A stretch of DNA of 64,000 bases from Salinivirgaceae bacterium (GCA_024405635.1 JAKSOL010000010.1:2128-66127); one strand, 5' to 3'; counted from the stretch's first letter, positions 1 to 9,078 are shown. A program made the numbers and translations. The notes: a model not told the origin generated them from the sequence alone.

Positions 1-347
1 GACGCACAATATTTACACATTGCATTTACTACAATGTTGACGAAAGCAAGCTAACAGCAAAAGCACAAGCCGAGCTTGAAGAAGTTATTAAGTTCCTAAT
101 GGACAATCCAAACATTGGAGCCGAAATAAACGGTTATGCCGACCAAACAGGCGGCAGCGAGCACAACATTGATTTGTCGCAACAACGAGCACAAAACGTT
201 ACAAAACACTTGCTAAACAACGGAGTGGACCGACGGAAACTGATAACAAACGGGCACGGAACGTCGCTACGAAACGGCAAAACCGAAAACGGAGCAGTAA
301 ACTACCGTCGAGTTGAAATAATTTTGTTTGAACTTAAAAACAAGTAA
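1..347 (+). CDS. OmpA-family peptidoglycan-binding domain protein (C-terminal part; 5' end lies outside the window)
   Basis: Frame 3 is open from the window edge (..NVDESKLTAKAQAELEEVIKFL..) to the stop at 345-347. It carries the OmpA C-terminal-like signature NGYADQTGGSEHNIDLSQQRAQNV...YRRVEI. Confidence 0.85.
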   Translation, partial: RTIFTHCIYYNVDESKLTAKAQAELEEVIKFLMDNPNIGAEINGYADQTGGSEHNIDLSQQRAQNVTKHLLNNGVDRRKLITNGHGTSLRNGKTENGAVNYRRVEIILFELKNK

Positions 348-351
348 AGCC

Positions 352-897
352 ATGACAACAAAAAGAACCATATTGATGTCGGCATTGCTTTGCTTGCTGA
401 CACTAACAACAAAAGCCCAATATGCCGAGTACGAAATAAAGGCTGCATACATTTTCAACTTTGCAAAATTTATAGAGTGGCCCGAAACCGAAACCACGCC
501 CTCCGACTCTATCTATTTATGCATTTACCAAAAAGACCCATTTGGTGTTATTTTGGAAAAAACCATGGTTGGACGCACAGCCAACGGCAAAAGTTGGAGC
601 ATAAAACGTATAAATAGTTTGAAAGAAGTTACCAAATGCCACATCTTGGTAATACCAGACATAAGCCAACACAATGTAACTAAACTACTTAAAGAAATTG
701 GCAACAAACCAATACTAACCATTGGCGACGAAATACCAAACTTTTGCAATTTGGGTGGTATAGTAAACTTTACGCCTCAAATGTCAAAGTGTCAGTTTGA
801 AATGAACAACGATGTTGCTTGCGGCAACCGTATTCGCATAAATCCAAAATTGTTGCAATTGGCAAAAATCATATCAAATAAAGAAGATGAATTTTAA
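352..897 (+). CDS. YfiR-like periplasmic protein (DUF4154 family)
   Basis: An ATG at 352 lies 4 nt after the upstream stop. There is a signal peptide (MTTKRTILMSALLCLLTLTTKAQ) and the DUF4154/YfiR hallmark IKAAYIFNFAKFIEWPE. The 328 start in the ORF track is a TTG that overlaps the upstream gene. Confidence 0.75.
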   Translation: MTTKRTILMSALLCLLTLTTKAQYAEYEIKAAYIFNFAKFIEWPETETTPSDSIYLCIYQKDPFGVILEKTMVGRTANGKSWSIKRINSLKEVTKCHILVIPDISQHNVTKLLKEIGNKPILTIGDEIPNFCNLGGIVNFTPQMSKCQFEMNNDVACGNRIRINPKLLQLAKIISNKEDEF

Positions 898-3148
898 AGA
901 CATATCCATTAGGTCAAAGATCTCAATCTTAGTGGTGGGTATATGCTTAGCCACGCTGATTGTGTCTAGTTTATTGTTTTTTGTATTCGATAGCCGTCAA
1001 TACAAAAAAATGATACTTGAAAAAGTAACCATCACAGCCGATGTAATTGGAGGCAACAACACAGCCAACATCATTTTCAACAACCCACAAGAGGCCGCAA
1101 CAGTACTACGTACACTAATTGCCGACGATGGCATAAACGTAGCTCGCATATACGACAACGACGACAATATTTTTGCCGAATACATAAAAGAACCTGAGTA
1201 TGCAATGTCAAACCTCGATTTCATCACAAGCAACGCATCTCATAAATATGTAAAACGAACATTACTTGTAAAACGCCCTATTATTCTTGACAACGAGAAA
1301 ATTGGCGCAACATTTTTGAATTACAGCATGGAAGGATACTATGCCCGACGCATAAGTTTCATTCACTTTTTGTTAGGACTATTTACTGCTGCACTTATAA
1401 TTGTTTTGTTGCTAACTGTTAAACTTCAACGCATCATTTCAACCCCCATTATTAACTTGACAAACACGATGCGTAGCATTGAAAAAAACCTTGACTACAT
1501 TACAGTTGACGACAAAAGAAAAGACGAAATAGGCCAGTTAATAAATGGTTTTAACTCCATGATTACACAAATCAAGCAACAAAACCAAGATTTGGTACTG
1601 GCCAAAAACCAAGCAGAAAATTCTGCCAAAATTAAAGACCAATTTCTTGCCAACATGAGCCACGAAATTCGAACACCAATGAACGGTGTTATTGGTATGG
1701 CTAAATTGCTTGAAAACACTCCACTTTCAGCCGAACAAAAATGCTTTTTAGACAACATTTCAATATCGGCAAGCAACCTGCTAGTTATTATCAACGACAT
1801 TTTGGACTTCTCAAAAATTGAGGCAGGCAAAATGGAACTTGAAGAGATTGAATTTAATTTGAGCAACATAATTGACACATTAAATGTAGTTTACACCAAA
1901 ACAACCGCCGACAAACGCTTGTACTTTAAACTAAACATTGACGACAATGTGCCCAAAATGCTATGGGGCGACCCTACTCGACTAACACAAATACTGAACA
2001 ATTTGATTGGCAATGCCGTAAAATTCACCGAGTATGGAGGCATTACGCTCACCATAAAATCGCGTGAAATGTCGCACAACTTCACACATTTAAAGTTTAT
2101 TGTTTCAGACACTGGCATTGGCATCCCACAAGAAAAACAAGACCTTATATTCAAAAGTTTTTCGCAAGCAAGCAGCGACACGACGCGCAAATATGGAGGC
2201 ACAGGACTTGGACTTACCATATCGCGTCAACTGGCTTTAATGCACAAAGATGGAAACCTAACAGTTAGTAGCCAAATTGACAAAGGCAGTACATTTTGTT
2301 TCGATGTAACCTACAAACAAAGCAACGCCACCCCAGAACCTATTGTTAAGACTACTGAAAGACCAAAACCTATTGAAGGAAAAAACAGGGTTAAAGTACT
2401 ACTAGCCGAAGACAATGAGATAAACCAATTGTTTGTTAAAACAATTCTAAAACCATACTTTGATGTTTACTCGGCCGAAAATGGCAAAATTGTGGTTGAT
2501 TGGCTACGAAAAGAAGATTTTGACATTATTCTGATGGACTTGCACATGCCCGAAATGGACGGCTACCAAGCAACATCTGAAATACGAAAAATGGATGACG
2601 AACGAATAAACAACATTCCAATTATTGCATTAACAGCAGCTGCTATTAAAGGCGAACGCGAAAAATGCATCGACTCGGGAATGAACGACTACATTTCAAA
2701 ACCATTTAACCCCGATGAACTTATCGACAAGATTTTTAGTTTGGTAACGCCATCCGAAAACATTGCTAACAAGCCTGAAGAAAGCCCAAAAAGCAAAATC
2801 AAACCTACTGAATTCAAATACATAAACACCAAATACCTTGATTCAATAACCGACGGCGACGAAAACTTTCAACACCAACTAGTATCGATTTTTATTGATC
2901 AAGTGCCTGAACTTAAAAACAATATGCTTGAAGCATTTGAGTCGCACAACTACCATCGCCTATCAGAAGTTGCTCACAAGGCAAAATCTTCAGTTGCAAT
3001 GATGGGAATGAGCCAGTTACGCGAACACCTTGCTCGACTTGAGCAAAGTGCTAAAGAAGGCATTGAGGCTGAAACCTACAAAGAAAAAATTGACCTATTT
3101 ATTGTTACTTGCGAGGCCGCTATCGAAGAATGTAAAAACCTACTATAA
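887..3148 (+). CDS. Hybrid sensor histidine kinase (2 TM, periplasmic loop, HAMP, HisKA, HATPase, REC, Hpt)
   Basis: It overlaps the upstream stop by 11 nt. Two hydrophobic helices flank a roughly 120-aa loop. Motifs seen: H-box FLANMSHEIRTPMNGV, N-box NLIGNAVKFT, G-boxes DTGIGI and GGTGLGL, receiver VLLAEDNEINQ...ILMDLHMPEMDG...ISKPF, and a C-terminal Hpt motif AHKAKSSVAMMG. Confidence 0.92.
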   Translation: MNFKDISIRSKISILVVGICLATLIVSSLLFFVFDSRQYKKMILEKVTITADVIGGNNTANIIFNNPQEAATVLRTLIADDGINVARIYDNDDNIFAEYIKEPEYAMSNLDFITSNASHKYVKRTLLVKRPIILDNEKIGATFLNYSMEGYYARRISFIHFLLGLFTAALIIVLLLTVKLQRIISTPIINLTNTMRSIEKNLDYITVDDKRKDEIGQLINGFNSMITQIKQQNQDLVLAKNQAENSAKIKDQFLANMSHEIRTPMNGVIGMAKLLENTPLSAEQKCFLDNISISASNLLVIINDILDFSKIEAGKMELEEIEFNLSNIIDTLNVVYTKTTADKRLYFKLNIDDNVPKMLWGDPTRLTQILNNLIGNAVKFTEYGGITLTIKSREMSHNFTHLKFIVSDTGIGIPQEKQDLIFKSFSQASSDTTRKYGGTGLGLTISRQLALMHKDGNLTVSSQIDKGSTFCFDVTYKQSNATPEPIVKTTERPKPIEGKNRVKVLLAEDNEINQLFVKTILKPYFDVYSAENGKIVVDWLRKEDFDIILMDLHMPEMDGYQATSEIRKMDDERINNIPIIALTAAAIKGEREKCIDSGMNDYISKPFNPDELIDKIFSLVTPSENIANKPEESPKSKIKPTEFKYINTKYLDSITDGDENFQHQLVSIFIDQVPELKNNMLEAFESHNYHRLSEVAHKAKSSVAMMGMSQLREHLARLEQSAKEGIEAETYKEKIDLFIVTCEAAIEECKNLL

Positions 3149-3149
3149 T

Positions 3150-3491
3150 ATGATTATCAACAACGACATTACTGGTTGCGCCATTGTTTCACCAAACTTT
3201 AACAATCGCCGCATTACTGTTAGCAACGCTGAAGAGTTTAAAAAAGAATTATTTAAAGTACTTGACAACAACTACTTAAACTTAATTCTTAACCTAAAAG
3301 ACATCGACATTATTGATAGCACAGGTCTTGGCGTTATAATTACAAGTTACAACCGCGCACAAAACCGCAACTGCAAATTCAAACTTTGCAATTTAAGCAA
3401 CGCTGTTGCCAACTTGCTACACATGACTAAACTTGACCAAGCTCTTGACATTTATTCTTCAGTTGACGAGGCAGTTGCATCAATCAAATAA
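3150..3491 (+). CDS. STAS-domain protein (anti-sigma factor antagonist family)
   Basis: An ATG at 3150 lies 1 nt after the kinase stop. The SpoIIAA/RsbV-like motif IDIIDSTGLGVII retains the phosphorylatable Ser (Ser57, codon 3318-3320). The longer 3030 start overlaps the Hpt coding region. Confidence 0.85.
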   Translation: MIINNDITGCAIVSPNFNNRRITVSNAEEFKKELFKVLDNNYLNLILNLKDIDIIDSTGLGVIITSYNRAQNRNCKFKLCNLSNAVANLLHMTKLDQALDIYSSVDEAVASIK

Positions 3492-4927
3492 TGGAAACAA
3501 CAAAACTCAACGAGTCGATTTGGCATCAACTGTATGCGCAACAAACCGGCAACGAACCTATAAACATTGAAAAGCTACCTCGTTCTGGATCCGACCGCCA
3601 ATATGCTCGACTCACTAATGAAACTGGCGAAACTCTTTTGGCCGCTTTCAATCCTAATGTTGACGAAAACGAAGCCTATTTTGCATTTTCAGAACACTTT
3701 TCAAGATTTAACATTAACGTACCCAAAGTGTTGGCAATTGGCTCCGACAGGCAACACTATTTAGTTGAAGACATTGGCCGCGACTCGCTTTATGACCACA
3801 TAACACTCGCCAAAGGTGAGTTTAACAACCAACTCAACCAACTATACTGCAAAGCACTAACTGACCTTGTTCAAATGCAAGTTGTAGCAGGAAAAACAAT
3901 TGACTACACCAAATGCTTTCCAACCGACAAATTTGACCAAACCGCCATTGGTTGGGACCTTAACTACTTTAAATACTGCTACTTAAAGTTAGCTCACGTT
4001 GATTTTGACGAAGTTAAACTTGAACAAGATTTTGATGCTATAAAACAAGCCATTGCCAATATTGATTGTTCTGCATTTATGTTCCGCGATTTTCAGTCAC
4101 GAAACATTCTTCTGAAAAACAACACCCCATATTACATCGATTTTCAAGGAGGACGCCGCGGCCCACTTACTTACGATGTTGCATCGCTACTCTATCAAGC
4201 CAAGGCGCAATTGAGCGAAGATGTTCGCAACAAACTGTTTGACCATTACGCAACAGAATTGTCAAAAGTGAAAGCAATTGACAAAGCAAAACTATTTGGC
4301 GAGTTTAAACTATTTGCATTGCTACGAACTTTGCAAGTGCTTGGAGCTTATGGATATAGAGGATATTTTGAGCAAAAAACACACTTTATTTCAAGCATAC
4401 CATTTGCAATTGAAAACCTAAAAACACTATTGCAACAAAATTTGCCCATTGATTTGCCTTACATTAAACACATTGCTAATCAGTTAAATACGTCCAAAAC
4501 CATTTCAACCAAAGCCGACCGACTAACCGTTAAAGTGTTTAGTTTTTCATACAAACGAGGCATACCATTTGACGAATCTGGCAATGGCGGGGGATTTGTA
4601 TTCGATTGCCGTGGGCAACATAATCCAGGCCGATTCCCCGAATACAAAAACGTTACTGGTCGCGACCAAATGATTAAAGACTTTTTCAAACAAAACCCAG
4701 GCATCGACCAATTCCTTGATGATGCTACACGCACAGTTTCTCCTACCATTGAAACATATATGCGTCGCGGATTTGCTAGTCTAATGGTAAGTTTTGGTTG
4801 CACAGGTGGGCAACACCGTTCAGTTTATTGTGCACAAGGTTTTGCCGAACGTATAAGCAAACTATTTGATATTGATGTTGAACTTTGCCATCGCGAACAA
4901 AACATAACCGAAAAATTTAGCAGATAA
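3491..4927 (+). CDS. Fusion protein: AmgK-like (APH-fold) sugar kinase N-terminal domain plus RapZ C-terminal-like domain
   Basis: The start overlaps the STAS stop by 1 nt. The N-terminal domain has GSDRQYARL, FRDFQSRNILL and YIDFQGGRRGPLTYDVASLL, which are protein-kinase-like/APH motifs as in anomeric MurNAc/GlcNAc kinases. The C-terminal part (aa 343-478, nt 4517-4924) has LTVKVFSFSYKRGIPFD, FDCRGQHNPG, VTGRD and GCTGGQHRSVY. These align motif by motif with the E. coli RapZ C-terminal domain. Confidence 0.8.
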   Translation: METTKLNESIWHQLYAQQTGNEPINIEKLPRSGSDRQYARLTNETGETLLAAFNPNVDENEAYFAFSEHFSRFNINVPKVLAIGSDRQHYLVEDIGRDSLYDHITLAKGEFNNQLNQLYCKALTDLVQMQVVAGKTIDYTKCFPTDKFDQTAIGWDLNYFKYCYLKLAHVDFDEVKLEQDFDAIKQAIANIDCSAFMFRDFQSRNILLKNNTPYYIDFQGGRRGPLTYDVASLLYQAKAQLSEDVRNKLFDHYATELSKVKAIDKAKLFGEFKLFALLRTLQVLGAYGYRGYFEQKTHFISSIPFAIENLKTLLQQNLPIDLPYIKHIANQLNTSKTISTKADRLTVKVFSFSYKRGIPFDESGNGGGFVFDCRGQHNPGRFPEYKNVTGRDQMIKDFFKQNPGIDQFLDDATRTVSPTIETYMRRGFASLMVSFGCTGGQHRSVYCAQGFAERISKLFDIDVELCHREQNITEKFSR

Positions 4928-5647
4928 ATGGAAGCAATGCTATTTGCCGCTGGACTTGGCTCACGACTCCGCCCCCTGACAAACGACCGCCCCAAAGCCT
5001 TAGTTAAAGTTGCTGGTCGCACGCTACTTGAACACAATATTGCGGCACTTGAAAATGCTGGCGCAACTCACATTGTGATTAACGTGCACCACTTTGCCGA
5101 CATGATGAAACAAACTATAAGCAACATTAACTGCAAAGCAAAACTCACCATTTCCGACGAAAGCGAAATGCTACTTGACACAGGTGGAGGCATAAAACAC
5201 GCATCGCAATACTTTACAAGCAATAAACCTATTGTGGTTGCAAATGTTGACATTCTATCAAACATCAACCTACAAAAAATGTATGCGCAACACACTGAAA
5301 ACAAGACCATTGCAACTCTTGCCGTGCGCAATCGTAATAGTTCTAGAATGTTGCTTTTCAACTCAAACAACGAACTGAAAGGTTGGCAAAACAATAAAAC
5401 TGGCGAAGTGAAATATACAAGCAACGACCGAGACCTTAAACAATTAGCATTCAGTGGAATACACATAATTTCACCCGAAATTTTCAATTATTTCCCTACC
5501 GAAAACATATTTTCGATAATTGACTTTTATCTAAAATTAGCACAAACTGAGCGCATTGTTGGATACCAACACCAACAAGATTATTGGTTTGATGCTGGAT
5601 CGCCAGCAAAAATTGAAGAAGCCGAAAAATTTCTACTCACTTTATAA
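4928..5647 (+). CDS. Sugar-1-phosphate nucleotidyltransferase (MurU-like)
   Basis: The ATG immediately follows the upstream stop (taaatg). The N-terminal signature is MLFAAGLGSRLRPLTNDRPKALVKVAGRTLLEH. The size (239 aa) and the position next to an APH-fold kinase mirror the AmgK-MurU pairing. Confidence 0.75.
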   Translation: MEAMLFAAGLGSRLRPLTNDRPKALVKVAGRTLLEHNIAALENAGATHIVINVHHFADMMKQTISNINCKAKLTISDESEMLLDTGGGIKHASQYFTSNKPIVVANVDILSNINLQKMYAQHTENKTIATLAVRNRNSSRMLLFNSNNELKGWQNNKTGEVKYTSNDRDLKQLAFSGIHIISPEIFNYFPTENIFSIIDFYLKLAQTERIVGYQHQQDYWFDAGSPAKIEEAEKFLLTL

Positions 5648-5662
5648 CCACACAACTATCAA

Positions 5663-6382
5663 ATGATAAAAACTGCAAAAGAGCAATTTTTGCAAAAACA
5701 TAACTACCAGTCACTCAACATAAAAGCTGCGCTATTTGACATGGACGGAGTACTATTTAATAGTATGCCGTTACATGCCAAAGCATGGGTTGAAGCCTTG
5801 CGCAAACTTGGAATTAACTTTTCCGAATATGAAGTATATCTGAACGAAGGAAGAACAGGCTTTTCAACAATCGATGAGCAATTTTTAAAACAATTTGGCC
5901 GACATAGTACCGAACAAGAACAACGCGAAATATATGCTCAAAAAAGTGCCATTTTCAAATCGATGCCAAAACCTGCTCCTATTACAGGAACTTTGGATAT
6001 TGTTAAATACTTAGCCAACAACAAAATAGCCCGATTAGTAGTAACCGGGTCGGGAGAAGAAACAACACTAAACCGAGTTGCCGAACACTACCCTAACCTA
6101 TTTGACCGTAAACAAATGGTTACCGCACACGATGTTAAACTAGGCAAACCACACCCCGAGCCTTATTTAATGGGACTTAGCAAAGCGCAAGTTGCTGCAA
6201 ACGAAGCAATTGTAATTGAAAATGCTCCTCTCGGCATTAGAGCTGGTGTAGCTGCTGGCATTTTCACCATCGGAATAAACACTGGCATATTAAAACGCGA
6301 GGACCTTATAAATGCTGGCGCTGATTTGGTGTTTGACAATATGCACGAATTCTTACTATCTATTGAAGAAATAATACACTAA
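5663..6382 (+). CDS. HAD-IA hydrolase, beta-phosphoglucomutase-like (sugar-phosphate phosphatase or pyrophosphatase candidate)
   Basis: Motif I is FDMDGVLFNS, motif II is VVTGSG, and the motif III Lys is in GKPHPEPYL. Motif IV reads VIENAPLG, with E-N (6218-6223) rather than the usual E-D. Confidence 0.8.
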   Translation: MIKTAKEQFLQKHNYQSLNIKAALFDMDGVLFNSMPLHAKAWVEALRKLGINFSEYEVYLNEGRTGFSTIDEQFLKQFGRHSTEQEQREIYAQKSAIFKSMPKPAPITGTLDIVKYLANNKIARLVVTGSGEETTLNRVAEHYPNLFDRKQMVTAHDVKLGKPHPEPYLMGLSKAQVAANEAIVIENAPLGIRAGVAAGIFTIGINTGILKREDLINAGADLVFDNMHEFLLSIEEIIH

Positions 6383-6400
6383 TAATCAAACAAATACACA

Positions 6401-6949
6401 ATGAAAAAAGTTTACATTTTTCTAGCCGAAGGTTTTGAAACAATTGAGGCTCTGGCTCCTGTTGATGTGCTTCGACGCGGAGGGATTGACGTTGTAACAG
6501 TATCGATAACCGACAGCGAAACTGTTGCTTCATCGCACAAAGTATTGGTTAAAGCAGACACCACTTTTGCTAAAGCCAACCTAAGTGATGGCGATGCCAT
6601 TATTCTTCCTGGTGGTTTTCCTGGTTATGCCAACTTGGGAAAATCGGCCGAGGTTGGACAAACTATAAAGAATTACTACAACAGCGGCAAATTAGTTGCT
6701 GCCATTTGCGGCGCCCCTACAGTATTGAAAATAAACGAAATAGGTGAAGGTAAACTTATAACCTGCCATAGTTCGGTTGTTGCCGATATGGTAAACTACA
6801 ACTACACTGGTACAGCAACCGCTACCGATGGTAACCTTATTACTGCTGATGGTGCTGGGCATTCAATTGTTTTTGGTTGCGAAATATTACGCTATCTAAC
6901 CAACGACGAAACTGTTACTTCTGTTAGAGGCAAAATGGAGTTGAAATAA
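6401..6949 (+). CDS. DJ-1/PfpI family protein
   Basis: A 182-aa protein with the nucleophile-elbow AAICGAP and IILPGG, which is typical DJ-1/ThiJ-like architecture. Confidence 0.85.
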   Translation: MKKVYIFLAEGFETIEALAPVDVLRRGGIDVVTVSITDSETVASSHKVLVKADTTFAKANLSDGDAIILPGGFPGYANLGKSAEVGQTIKNYYNSGKLVAAICGAPTVLKINEIGEGKLITCHSSVVADMVNYNYTGTATATDGNLITADGAGHSIVFGCEILRYLTNDETVTSVRGKMELK

Positions 6950-6970
6950 TCTCTCAATAGTTGTATAAAC

Positions 6971-7002
6971 AAAAAAGCCACGATTAAATCGTGGCTTTTT
7001 TG
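6971..7002. terminator. Bidirectional rho-independent terminator between convergent genes
   Basis: The sequence aaaaaagccacga-ttaaa-tcgtggctttttt forms a GC-rich stem flanked by an A-run and a T-run. Confidence 0.8.
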
Positions 7003-7023
7003 TTTGAATATCAAGCTATTATA

Positions 7024-9078
7024 TTAATTCTCAGGATATGTTGCAACCTTTTTAATCGAATAATCTTTAGCGTAGTTAATTATATAAATAGCCGTATTTT
7101 GATAACCTCCCTGATCGGTTGTTGGCATAAAGTTTAGCGATGTTTGCAACAATGGTACTTTATGGAACATTATTGCACGACGAAAATCTCTACCATATTT
7201 ATTCAATGCCGAACAGAAATATGTTGTTATATCGTAAGCCTGAAAAGCGGTTTTGCTAGGTTCAATTTTAAACATATTTCGGAACTGACTTACAAACTCA
7301 ATTATCTGTGGTTCAGAATAGTTTATATATGAATTTGACAGAAAATGCATGTTTGTATTAAACAAGTTATCAATGTCAATACTCTCAAACATTTCCCATC
7401 GGCTTTGACCAAACACCGTAATGTCGTACTCGTATGAGTAACCGTTTATCTTTCCAATCACGTCGGTTACAAACGAACGGTCGGTTGATGGAATAATAAC
7501 AATATTCTCTCTTCCTTTTACAAACGCACTATTGAGCAAATCTCCATTTGCATTAAAATAGTAATACTCATGATAACGAACTTGGTCAAGGTTATCGCTA
7601 CTAATAGTTGAATAAAGCTGACGTTTAAATTCTGAAATGTAATCTTGCTCTTGACTATTTCCGTTATGAATAACTATGTAGTTTTTAGAATCGACTTGTG
7701 TTAAAAATTCTGCCACATACTTCATTTGAATATCAAACGATGGGCTTACCTGAAAAGCATACGGGTTATGTGTAATAAAATCGTTTTTAACCGACAATGG
7801 CGACACAATGTTTATTTGATGCTCCCAAGCATAATCGCCAACTACCGATAGTTCGCCACTAAATGCTGGACCAATAAACAAATCGAAGTTTGATAAATCG
7901 GTGGTTTTCAAATAGTTTGCAATATATGTACTATCGCCACGAGTATCAATTATTTTAACATTGAACGACATTCCTTTGCTCTTTAAATCTTGCAAAGCCA
8001 ACATTGCTCCAATGTAGAAATCAACAAACATTTTTGATTTGCCATATATCTTTCCAGTGCCGTCGCCCCAACCCGCTGTATCGCTCATATTTAGATACAA
8101 TGGCAAGAAGAAAGCTACATTGTACGATTTTTCGGTATCAATTTGAGCATTCATAAATTCAACCATCTCTTGCTTGTTAGCCGAGTAGTCGTTTATGCGA
8201 AGTTGCTCTTGTTCTTTTTGCTTAATCGCCGAACTATCAACCTTTGCAACCAACTCTGTTTCAGACATTACCATTGAGCTTCCCTTTGGTATGCGTATTA
8301 TTTCACCTTCTTGCAATCCTCGTTTTTTCAAATCGGGATTAAGTTTCAAAATCTGCTTATCGGATATATTGTATTTGCGGGCTATACCATACAAAGTTTC
8401 TTGTTTGGCAACTTTATGCCAATCGCATTCTTCCTCAGCAACAGCAGCAACTGCCTCTTTTGCAGGTATTTTAAGCGATTCGCCTATTTGTATTGAACGT
8501 GTTTTTATTTCTTGATTCAAAGCCTCAATTTCTTCAACCGAAACATGATACTGACGCGATATGCCAAACAGAGTTTCTTGTTTCTTAACTACGTGCAGAA
8601 TAAAAGAATTATCGTCAATAGCAGGTTCTTCAAACTCGGTATTTTGTTCGGTTTTATTGGCCACTTCTTGTGCACGAAAACGTAAACGGTCGCCTATGCG
8701 AATACCAAGTTCAGTTCCTGGGTTAAGTTCATACAATTCTGAAACCGTACAACCATAGCGCTTTGATAGGTTGTATGGTGTATCGCCTTTTTCTACTTTG
8801 TGGTAAATGTAGGTTGAGTTAACTACAGGCTCTTGCTTAACTCTAACTTTAATGTATTGGTTGGGATGAATAACGTATGCTGCTTGTGGGTTATCGGCAA
8901 TAAGAGTATCAACTGGCACCTCGTACTGGCGACTTATGGCGCTCAATGTTTCTCCTTGTCGAATAATGTGCATATAATATTCGCGACCGTTGAGCAACAC
9001 TTTATTATTTTGAGCATTTACGGCTGCGGCTAATAAAAGTCCTATTGATAGTATCCAAAAACGTTTCATATTGTGCAT
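7024..9078 (-). CDS. Secreted protein with four LysM repeats and a C-terminal type-I periplasmic-binding-protein-like domain
   Basis: There is a signal peptide (MKRFWILSIGLLLAAAVNAQ) and four LysM-like repeats (..GETLSAISRQYEV.., ..GDTPYNLSKRYGC.., ..QETLFGISRQYHV.., ..QETLYGIARKYNI..). A roughly 380-aa C-terminal domain follows. An alternative ATG start lies at 9069. Confidence 0.8.
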   Translation of the reverse strand: MHNMKRFWILSIGLLLAAAVNAQNNKVLLNGREYYMHIIRQGETLSAISRQYEVPVDTLIADNPQAAYVIHPNQYIKVRVKQEPVVNSTYIYHKVEKGDTPYNLSKRYGCTVSELYELNPGTELGIRIGDRLRFRAQEVANKTEQNTEFEEPAIDDNSFILHVVKKQETLFGISRQYHVSVEEIEALNQEIKTRSIQIGESLKIPAKEAVAAVAEEECDWHKVAKQETLYGIARKYNISDKQILKLNPDLKKRGLQEGEIIRIPKGSSMVMSETELVAKVDSSAIKQKEQEQLRINDYSANKQEMVEFMNAQIDTEKSYNVAFFLPLYLNMSDTAGWGDGTGKIYGKSKMFVDFYIGAMLALQDLKSKGMSFNVKIIDTRGDSTYIANYLKTTDLSNFDLFIGPAFSGELSVVGDYAWEHQINIVSPLSVKNDFITHNPYAFQVSPSFDIQMKYVAEFLTQVDSKNYIVIHNGNSQEQDYISEFKRQLYSTISSDNLDQVRYHEYYYFNANGDLLNSAFVKGRENIVIIPSTDRSFVTDVIGKINGYSYEYDITVFGQSRWEMFESIDIDNLFNTNMHFLSNSYINYSEPQIIEFVSQFRNMFKIEPSKTAFQAYDITTYFCSALNKYGRDFRRAIMFHKVPLLQTSLNFMPTTDQGGYQNTAIYIINYAKDYSIKKVATYPEN

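Follow-up and report, generated by a model that had tools for sequence, protein, structure and literature searches.

The DNA analyzed here, a stretch of 64,000 nucleotides (nt) from a contig of a Salinivirgaceae bacterium (hereafter the window), opens with four closely packed genes on the + strand, at positions 1-3491. They encode, in order, the end of an OmpA-family protein, a DUF4154 protein related to YfiR, a hybrid sensor histidine kinase and a single-domain STAS protein (Table 1). The open reading frames, the gene order and the three junctions (a 4-nt gap, an 11-nt overlap and a 1-nt gap, respectively) had been described in an earlier note and proved correct on re-reading. A Pfam scan of the four products gave matches that all exceeded the gathering scores, including those to the OmpA, DUF4154 and CHASE8 profiles that the earlier note had proposed as a check on its reading of this locus as a relative of the YfiBNR system.

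Table 1. Coordinates of the genes and domains discussed, in the numbering of the window.
Feature	Position	Strand	Remarks
OmpA-family gene, 3' end	1..347	+	last 114 codons, frame of base 3; TAA 345-347; only OmpA_C inside window
YfiR-like (DUF4154) gene, 181 aa	352..897	+	ATG 352, TAA 895-897; Pfam DUF4154 5.5e-38
YfiR-like/kinase overlap, 11 nt	887..897	+	GAAGATGAATTTTAA
Hybrid sensor histidine kinase, 753 aa	887..3148	+	ATG 887, TAA 3146-3148; Pfam and hydropathy
CHASE8	1013-1315	+	Pfam 2.3e-10, 41 bits (cutoff 27)
HAMP	1430-1576	+	Pfam 4.2e-09, 37 bits (cutoff 25)
HisKA	1634-1828	+	Pfam 5.1e-21
HATPase_c	1967-2308	+	Pfam 1.4e-26
Receiver (Response_reg)	2396-2734	+	Pfam 4.8e-27
Hpt	2876-3058	+	Pfam 8.2e-09
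Single-domain STAS gene, 113 aa	3150..3491	+	ATG 3150, TAA 3489-3491; Pfam STAS 4.1e-18
APH/AmgK-like sugar kinase fused to RapZ C-terminal domain	3491-4927	+	Pfam PapZ_C 1.2e-30; ATG overlaps STAS stop (TAATG)
MurU-like uridylyltransferase	4928-5647	+	
HAD hydrolase	5663-6382	+	
DJ-1/PfpI protein	6401-6949	+	
Exported LysM protein, 684 aa	7024-9078	-	converges on cluster
TPR-TM-PAS-SpoIIE (PP2C) phosphatase, 888 aa	16671-19337	-	13 kb from STAS gene
aa, amino acids; TM, transmembrane segment.

The YfiR-like protein and the hybrid kinase

The assignment of the second product to the YfiR family stands. Its match to DUF4154 (PF13689) scores 130.7 bits (cutoff 24.9) and covers the whole profile (1-143/143), and a profile built from 34 of its relatives recovered Pseudomonas aeruginosa YfiR from the Protein Data Bank (PDB) at E=4e-8. 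An AlphaFold2 model of the protein (pLDDT 87.8) was compared with PDB structures using Foldseek: the top 15 matches were all P. aeruginosa YfiR, with target-normalised TM-scores of 0.74-0.81, a probability of 1.0 and about 15% identity, followed by a Rhodothermus substrate-binding protein at 0.56-0.60. As modelled, then, the protein has the YfiR fold. Relatives carry the public label 'YfiR family protein [Salinivirgaceae bacterium]'. The scores against the NCBIfam models YfiR_like_TOL0243 (NF053591; 106.1 bits, 1.5e-30) and sequest_YfiR (NF053586; 50.9 bits) are below the respective cutoffs of 125 and 85. Residues 1-22, read from the sequence, form a signal peptide of the signal-peptidase-I type (MTTKRTILMSALLCLLTLTTKA followed by QY, with predicted cleavage between TKA and QY), and the A-x-A pattern followed by Q at the end of the leader is kept in the orthologues. 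The protein is thus predicted to be exported to the periplasm.

The most conserved part of the family is a C-terminal block comprising F149, N152, A156, L167 and L168. Aligned with it in P. aeruginosa YfiR is a stretch containing F151, E163 and I169, residues proposed to bind YfiN, as well as part of the YfiB interface (PMC4887326). This family does not keep Cys145 and Cys152 of P. aeruginosa YfiR together as a pair. Residues specific to the clade (Q23, Y24, E28, Y33, Y59, C132, Q143, S145 and E178) could not be mapped onto the surface and were left out of consideration; a paper on an Acinetobacter baumannii 'yfiR' was likewise set aside, having no bearing on kinase-coupled systems.

The product of the third gene agrees, by Pfam and hydropathy, with its earlier description as a CHASE8-HAMP sensor with two transmembrane segments and a kinase output instead of GGDEF. 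Of its two transmembrane segments, one falls within residues 6-37 and the other within 154-189, with about 120 amino acids of periplasmic loop between them; the periplasmic domain of YfiN is classed as CHASE8 as well (PMC8085984, PMC8294551). The output region reads HisKA-HATPase_c-Response_reg-Hpt, in place of the GGDEF domain of YfiN-type sensors, and all of the phosphorelay motifs are present in the translation: the H-box SHEIRTP, the N and G boxes, DLHMPEMDG in the receiver and AHKAKSS in the Hpt domain. Residues 7-231 align with the NCBIfam model HK_near_YfiR_like (NF053592) at 151 bits (3.5e-44), below the cutoff of 194; the gene does adjoin a YfiR-like gene. Comparison of the sensor region with PDB sequences gave only marginal HAMP matches (E at least 0.06), and a homologue search with this region gave zero matches. 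A single-sequence AlphaFold2 model of residues 1-238 (pLDDT 63.8, with 10-residue block means of 38-62 in the periplasmic part) was not used.

The 11-nt overlap between the YfiR-like and kinase genes is kept at the nucleotide level: the junction GAAGATGA(A/G)TTTTA(A/G) is present in 11 of 12 sequences (the window and 10 of 11 related Bacteroidota loci). Because of this conservation, the overlap points to translational coupling of the two genes. The YfiR-like proteins of the clade end in an invariant EDEF (883-897 in the window, and the orthologous junctions), the codons of which double as the kinase start, M-(N/S)-F; this invariance may stem from dual coding and not from a functional tail. A terminator scan found no terminator-like site on the + strand between positions 1 and 7200, a result at chance level. 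The promoter scan of the cluster region was also at chance level, with a tool that does not cover Bacteroidota promoters.

The OmpA-family protein and its insertion

Most of the OmpA-family gene lies 5' of the window. The full gene was read from the same contig in metagenome-assembled genome (MAG) GCA_045643365.1 (JAZUKO010000046.1), reached through an exact match to the DUF4154 protein; it spans L001:7561-9996 and encodes 811 amino acids. The protein comprises a cleavable leader, TPR-like repeats, a PD40 beta-propeller, a CRD-like region, an insertion of about 190 amino acids and a C-terminal OmpA domain (OmpA_C), with Pfam matches to PD40 and OmpA (5.6e-19 for the OmpA domain in the window). 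The leader ends in AQA before QY, the lipobox cysteine being absent, and OmpA_C carries the peptidoglycan-binding motif D...NxxLSxxRA (ADQTGGSEHNIDLSQQRAQNV). The domain order of PorE is TPR-WD40-CRD-OmpA_C (PMC12773672, PMC7192894). NCBIfam models for CHU_0125_OmpA (NF053607) and PorE (NF052230) align with residues 28-539 and with OmpA_C, but their scores, 209 and 182 bits, are below the cutoffs of 620 and 600. By these comparisons the protein has a PorE/CHU_0125-like architecture while lying outside both equivalogs.

The NCBIfam YfiB model (NF053585) scores 51.7 bits (cutoff 128) and aligns with OmpA_C only, the sole part in which the protein appears YfiB-like. Given its size, the missing lipobox and the restriction of the YfiB match to OmpA_C, this is not a small lipoprotein of the YfiB type. 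The designation "YfiB-like" used in the earlier note therefore holds for the OmpA-type, peptidoglycan-binding domain and has to be given up for the rest of the protein. YfiB's N-terminal YfiR-binding arm (F48, W55, F57) has no counterpart in the 811-amino acid protein; the segment that precedes OmpA_C is the unrelated insertion.

The insertion occupies residues 513-706 (L001:9097-9678), between the CRD and OmpA_C, with the core VNNTFYDLYKT.EADSI...PKQPKYYDHLLELIENIIQTTDT...TLSILDANA.QKDK. Alignment shows that it is kept in the orthologues linked to YfiR-like genes and missing in paralogues of about 685 amino acids that are encoded divergently nearby. Neither Pfam nor PDB sequences gave a credible match to this domain, which occurs almost only beside YfiR-like/kinase genes. 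A homologue search with the OmpA fragment of the window gave one match only.

Other OmpA-family members occur in the neighborhood: a paralogue of 1183 amino acids in this MAG, and the paralogues of about 685 amino acids in relatives. Upstream of the OmpA-like gene, and divergent from it, 13 Bacteroidota loci have a gene for a protein of about 260 amino acids without family match (L001:6703-7497 and L005:4639-5436, both on the - strand). In most relatives it is followed by genes for a 350-amino acid TPR protein and for the PorE/CHU_0125-like paralogue of about 685 amino acids (L005:3498-4553 and 1430-3484, - strand). These divergent genes have the appearance of a further conserved envelope operon opposite the first one.

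Gene order among relatives

A scan of GTDB with one genome per species gave 434 confirmed YfiR-like relatives, and the analysis went on with the 80 best loci. The Bacteroidota among these are 14 MAGs (Salinivirgaceae, Marinilabiliales and Bacteroidales), 13 of them with upstream DNA. In 12 of the 13, an orthologue of the 811-amino acid protein is encoded directly upstream of the YfiR-like gene on the same strand, with a gap of 0-5 nt or a 4-nt stop/start overlap (e.g. ATGA). The reverse test used the insertion domain as a probe against metagenome contigs and returned 33 loci, 32 with downstream DNA. A YfiR-like protein is encoded directly after the OmpA-like gene in 31 of these 32, the exception (L111) being a divergent 958-amino acid protein, and the kinase gene comes next in every locus with enough contig. 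Gene order and overlapping junctions thus hold over 12 species-level genomes and 31 metagenome loci, down to about 39% identity between the YfiR-like proteins. On account of the 12/13 genome loci and 31/32 insertion-found loci, the association of the three genes is near-obligate in both directions within this Bacteroidales/Marinilabiliales clade. Such two-way synteny is good evidence for a functional triad, and not for a particular mechanism. The conserved order that the earlier note asked to be looked for in Bacteroidota genomes holds, in this clade, for the OmpA-like, YfiR-like and kinase genes and, in about half of the loci, for STAS. The note had named three results that would speak against its reading (no DUF4154 or CHASE8 match, a cytoplasmic YfiR-like protein, an unconserved gene order); none was obtained. 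All carriers found are uncultured MAGs.

The pairing of a YfiR-like gene with a kinase gene extends well beyond this clade. Pfam domains were scanned in 72 genes lying directly downstream of YfiR-like genes (that of the window and those of 71 loci from its nearest GTDB relatives). CHASE8 and HAMP were each found in 59, HATPase_c in 57, HisKA in 56, a receiver in 44 and Hpt in 19, and GGDEF did not rank with the 25 families found most often in these genes. Kinase output is the commonest state, indeed the rule, for this YfiR-like subfamily and not a rewiring. Replacement of GGDEF by kinases, Hpt domains or methyl-accepting chemotaxis protein domains was described for divergent Yfi operons by Malone et al. 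2012 (PMC3375315), who found yfiB in almost none of these operons and put forward YfiR-YfiN[PAS/HAMP] as a modular core; the examples in their Table S4 come from Acidobacteria, Dechloromonas, Desulfobacterium and Thauera, and a term search of the supplementary files gave no mention of Bacteroidetes. NCBIfam holds models for the pair (NF053591, 'YfiR-like'; NF053592, 'sensor histidine kinase, YfiR-like protein-associated'). The novelty attributed earlier to a kinase in place of the cyclase is accordingly lost: the substitution was seen in silico in 2012, has models of its own and applies to most of the downstream genes just listed. That such a system is uncharacterized in Bacteroidota agrees with our literature search, which found no experimental characterization there and no experimental study of any kinase-coupled YfiR relative. 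What appears new here is the PorE-like partner, its insertion and the near-obligate linkage, the YfiR-like/kinase pairing being already known. Among non-Bacteroidota loci (within L017-L084), the gene after the YfiR-like gene encodes a TonB-dependent receptor in four and a protein with a second DUF4154 domain in three.

A STAS gene comes after the kinase gene in eight genome loci; among the metagenome loci, 14 of the 26 informative ones have it there. The genes after STAS vary among relatives (TPR-PAS kinase, DUF3857/transglutaminase proteins, M13 peptidase), so the conserved unit ends at STAS. In the window, STAS is followed by genes for a sugar kinase-RapZ fusion, a MurU-like uridylyltransferase, a HAD hydrolase and a DJ-1/PfpI protein, making eight co-directional genes, from OmpA-like to DJ-1/PfpI, with gaps of at most 18 nt. 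Among the relatives, only the three closest genomes (L005, L006 and L038) have this peptidoglycan-salvage-like set behind STAS. The gene that converges on the cluster encodes an exported protein with several LysM repeats and a weak ANF_receptor/Peripla_BP_6 region.

A putative envelope-sensing module

In P. aeruginosa YfiBNR, the textbook case, a repressor that shuttles in the periplasm lets an outer-membrane protein control an enzyme of the inner membrane. We lean towards the view that the first three genes of the window form an envelope-sensing module that works on the same principle, with a phosphorelay as its output. By analogy with YfiBNR, the YfiR-like protein would bind the periplasmic CHASE8 domain of the kinase and keep the kinase in a single signalling state. 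Upon a change in the envelope or the peptidoglycan, the YfiR-like protein would be captured or released by the wall-anchored OmpA-like protein, probably by way of the insertion in the latter. The switch would alter autophosphorylation of the kinase, and phosphate would pass from HisKA to the receiver, to Hpt and on to a response regulator encoded elsewhere. Speaking for such a module are the domain identities, the YfiR fold, the alignment of the C-terminal block, the two-way synteny, the insertion and the lack of a + strand terminator at positions 1-7200. Since receiver and/or Hpt persist as separate genes in some more divergent relatives, the relay belongs to the family. The tripartite, YfiBNR-type arrangement originally proposed is retained as to gene order, YfiR-like protein, CHASE8-HAMP sensor and OmpA_C domain, and is abandoned as to likeness to YfiB beyond OmpA_C.

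Several observations weigh against a three-part module. The OmpA-like protein lacks the arm with which YfiB binds YfiR and is not a lipoprotein. One Bacteroidota locus (L016) has the YfiR-like/kinase pair with no OmpA-like gene directly upstream. In other phyla (Acidobacteriota, Verrucomicrobiota, Nitrospirota and others), a single locus of 66 has an OmpA_C gene within 8 kb, a marginal match on the other strand; since OmpA_C is nearly absent near these loci, the YfiR-like/kinase core needs no OmpA_C partner, and outside Bacteroidota it works without one. The last two findings, together with the general lack of yfiB from divergent Yfi operons (Malone 2012, PMC3375315) and the presence of further OmpA-family paralogues nearby, would fit a signalling unit made of the YfiR-like protein and the kinase only, the OmpA-like protein being merely co-transcribed, either as a tether between wall and outer membrane or as a product that the pair monitors or regulates. 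We regard this as unlikely, if deserving of serious weight: it does not account for the near-obligate linkage in both directions, for the coupled stop/start junctions or for the insertion, conserved in the linked orthologues and absent from the paralogues.

The YfiR-like protein might instead act as a co-receptor of the TorT-TorS or LuxP-LuxQ kind, which on binding a small molecule activates or tunes the kinase, and not as a sequestered repressor. The structural matches to a substrate-binding protein that come next after YfiR (see above) would agree with such a role, as would the binding of vitamin B6 and L-Trp by P. aeruginosa YfiR in a pocket also used by F57 of YfiB (PMC4887326). However, no ligand is known for this subfamily, its sole characterized relative is a repressor and the conserved OmpA-like partner would be left unexplained, which makes a co-receptor quite improbable. 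A fortuitous adjacency of functionally unrelated genes is contradicted by the extent of the conserved order and overlaps over species, metagenomes and sequence divergence, and can hardly be entertained.

Returning to the three-part module, its weakest step is the connection from kinase to STAS. The STAS protein scores 69.5 bits against the anti-sigma-factor antagonist model TIGR00377 (cutoff 53.45), and S57, in its IDS(T/S)G motif, is invariant in eight orthologues. With this phosphorylatable serine, STAS would link the relay to a partner-switching circuit resembling HptB-HsbR-HsbA. The following points count against such an output. About half of the related loci have no STAS gene. The 64-kb window contains no receiver, kinase, Hpt or STAS gene beyond those described, and a search for an RsbW-type kinase found none in it, which is a weak negative. 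The only PP2C phosphatase in the window has no receiver domain. Neither an RsbW-type kinase nor a PP2C phosphatase adjoins STAS. The PP2C protein, with its TPR-TM-PAS-SpoIIE layout, is a candidate STAS phosphatase. In one relative (L010), the gene directly after STAS has a TPR-PAS layout with a histidine-kinase output; its similarity to the TPR-PAS-SpoIIE protein of the window is architectural only. The partner-switch output put forward in the earlier note thus comes down to adjacency, seen in roughly half of the related loci. A more specific scheme, in which the PorE-like insertion captures the YfiR-like protein and thereby switches a hybrid kinase feeding a STAS partner switch, as a tripartite surveillance system particular to Bacteroidales, is conceivable but doubtful. 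If this scheme is true, an unrelated scaffold would have taken on the role of YfiB independently.

The locus resembles YfiBNR (TpbB/DgcN; P. aeruginosa, E. coli) and Yersinia HmsCDE in having a protein of DUF4154/YfiR fold beside a two-transmembrane CHASE8-HAMP sensor, a peptidoglycan-binding OmpA_C protein in the operon and a conserved C-terminal surface block in YfiR. It differs in its output (HisKA-HATPase-REC-Hpt versus GGDEF), in its gene order (OmpA-YfiR-sensor), in the low identity to P. aeruginosa YfiR (about 15%) and in its OmpA_C protein, which is large, PorE-like, without YfiB arm or lipid anchor signal, whereas YfiB is a lipoprotein of about 165 amino acids. The pairs of Malone 2012 and of NF053591-NF053592 share the two-gene core and the sensor architecture; the window proteins, however, fall below both cutoffs (106 versus 125 and 151 versus 194 bits), as members of a more divergent branch, and possess an OmpA_C partner, unlike the 2012 pairs, which were described without a YfiB-type partner and include none from Bacteroidota (PMC3375315). 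PorE (PG1058, type IX secretion) and Cytophaga hutchinsonii CHU_0125 have the same order of TPR, WD40/PD40 propeller, CRD and OmpA_C, but the 811-amino acid protein scores far below their cutoffs, has no lipobox, bears the extra insertion and has a signalling pair, not secretion genes, as its linked neighbors. The Pseudomonas HptB-HsbR-HsbA system (PMC6482189) likewise combines a hybrid kinase with Hpt and with a STAS antagonist whose serine can be phosphorylated; in the window, by contrast, no HsbR-type receiver-PP2C-kinase protein was found and the link is one of adjacency only.

Kinase-coupled relatives of YfiR are widespread, and the three-gene version of this clade adds to them a larger and different wall-binding partner with a candidate docking domain. 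Practical value is limited for now, as all carriers found are uncultured MAGs. The triad could nonetheless serve to test the generality of the sequestration mechanism, and could show how Bacteroidales, including gut and rumen organisms, sense the state of their envelope.

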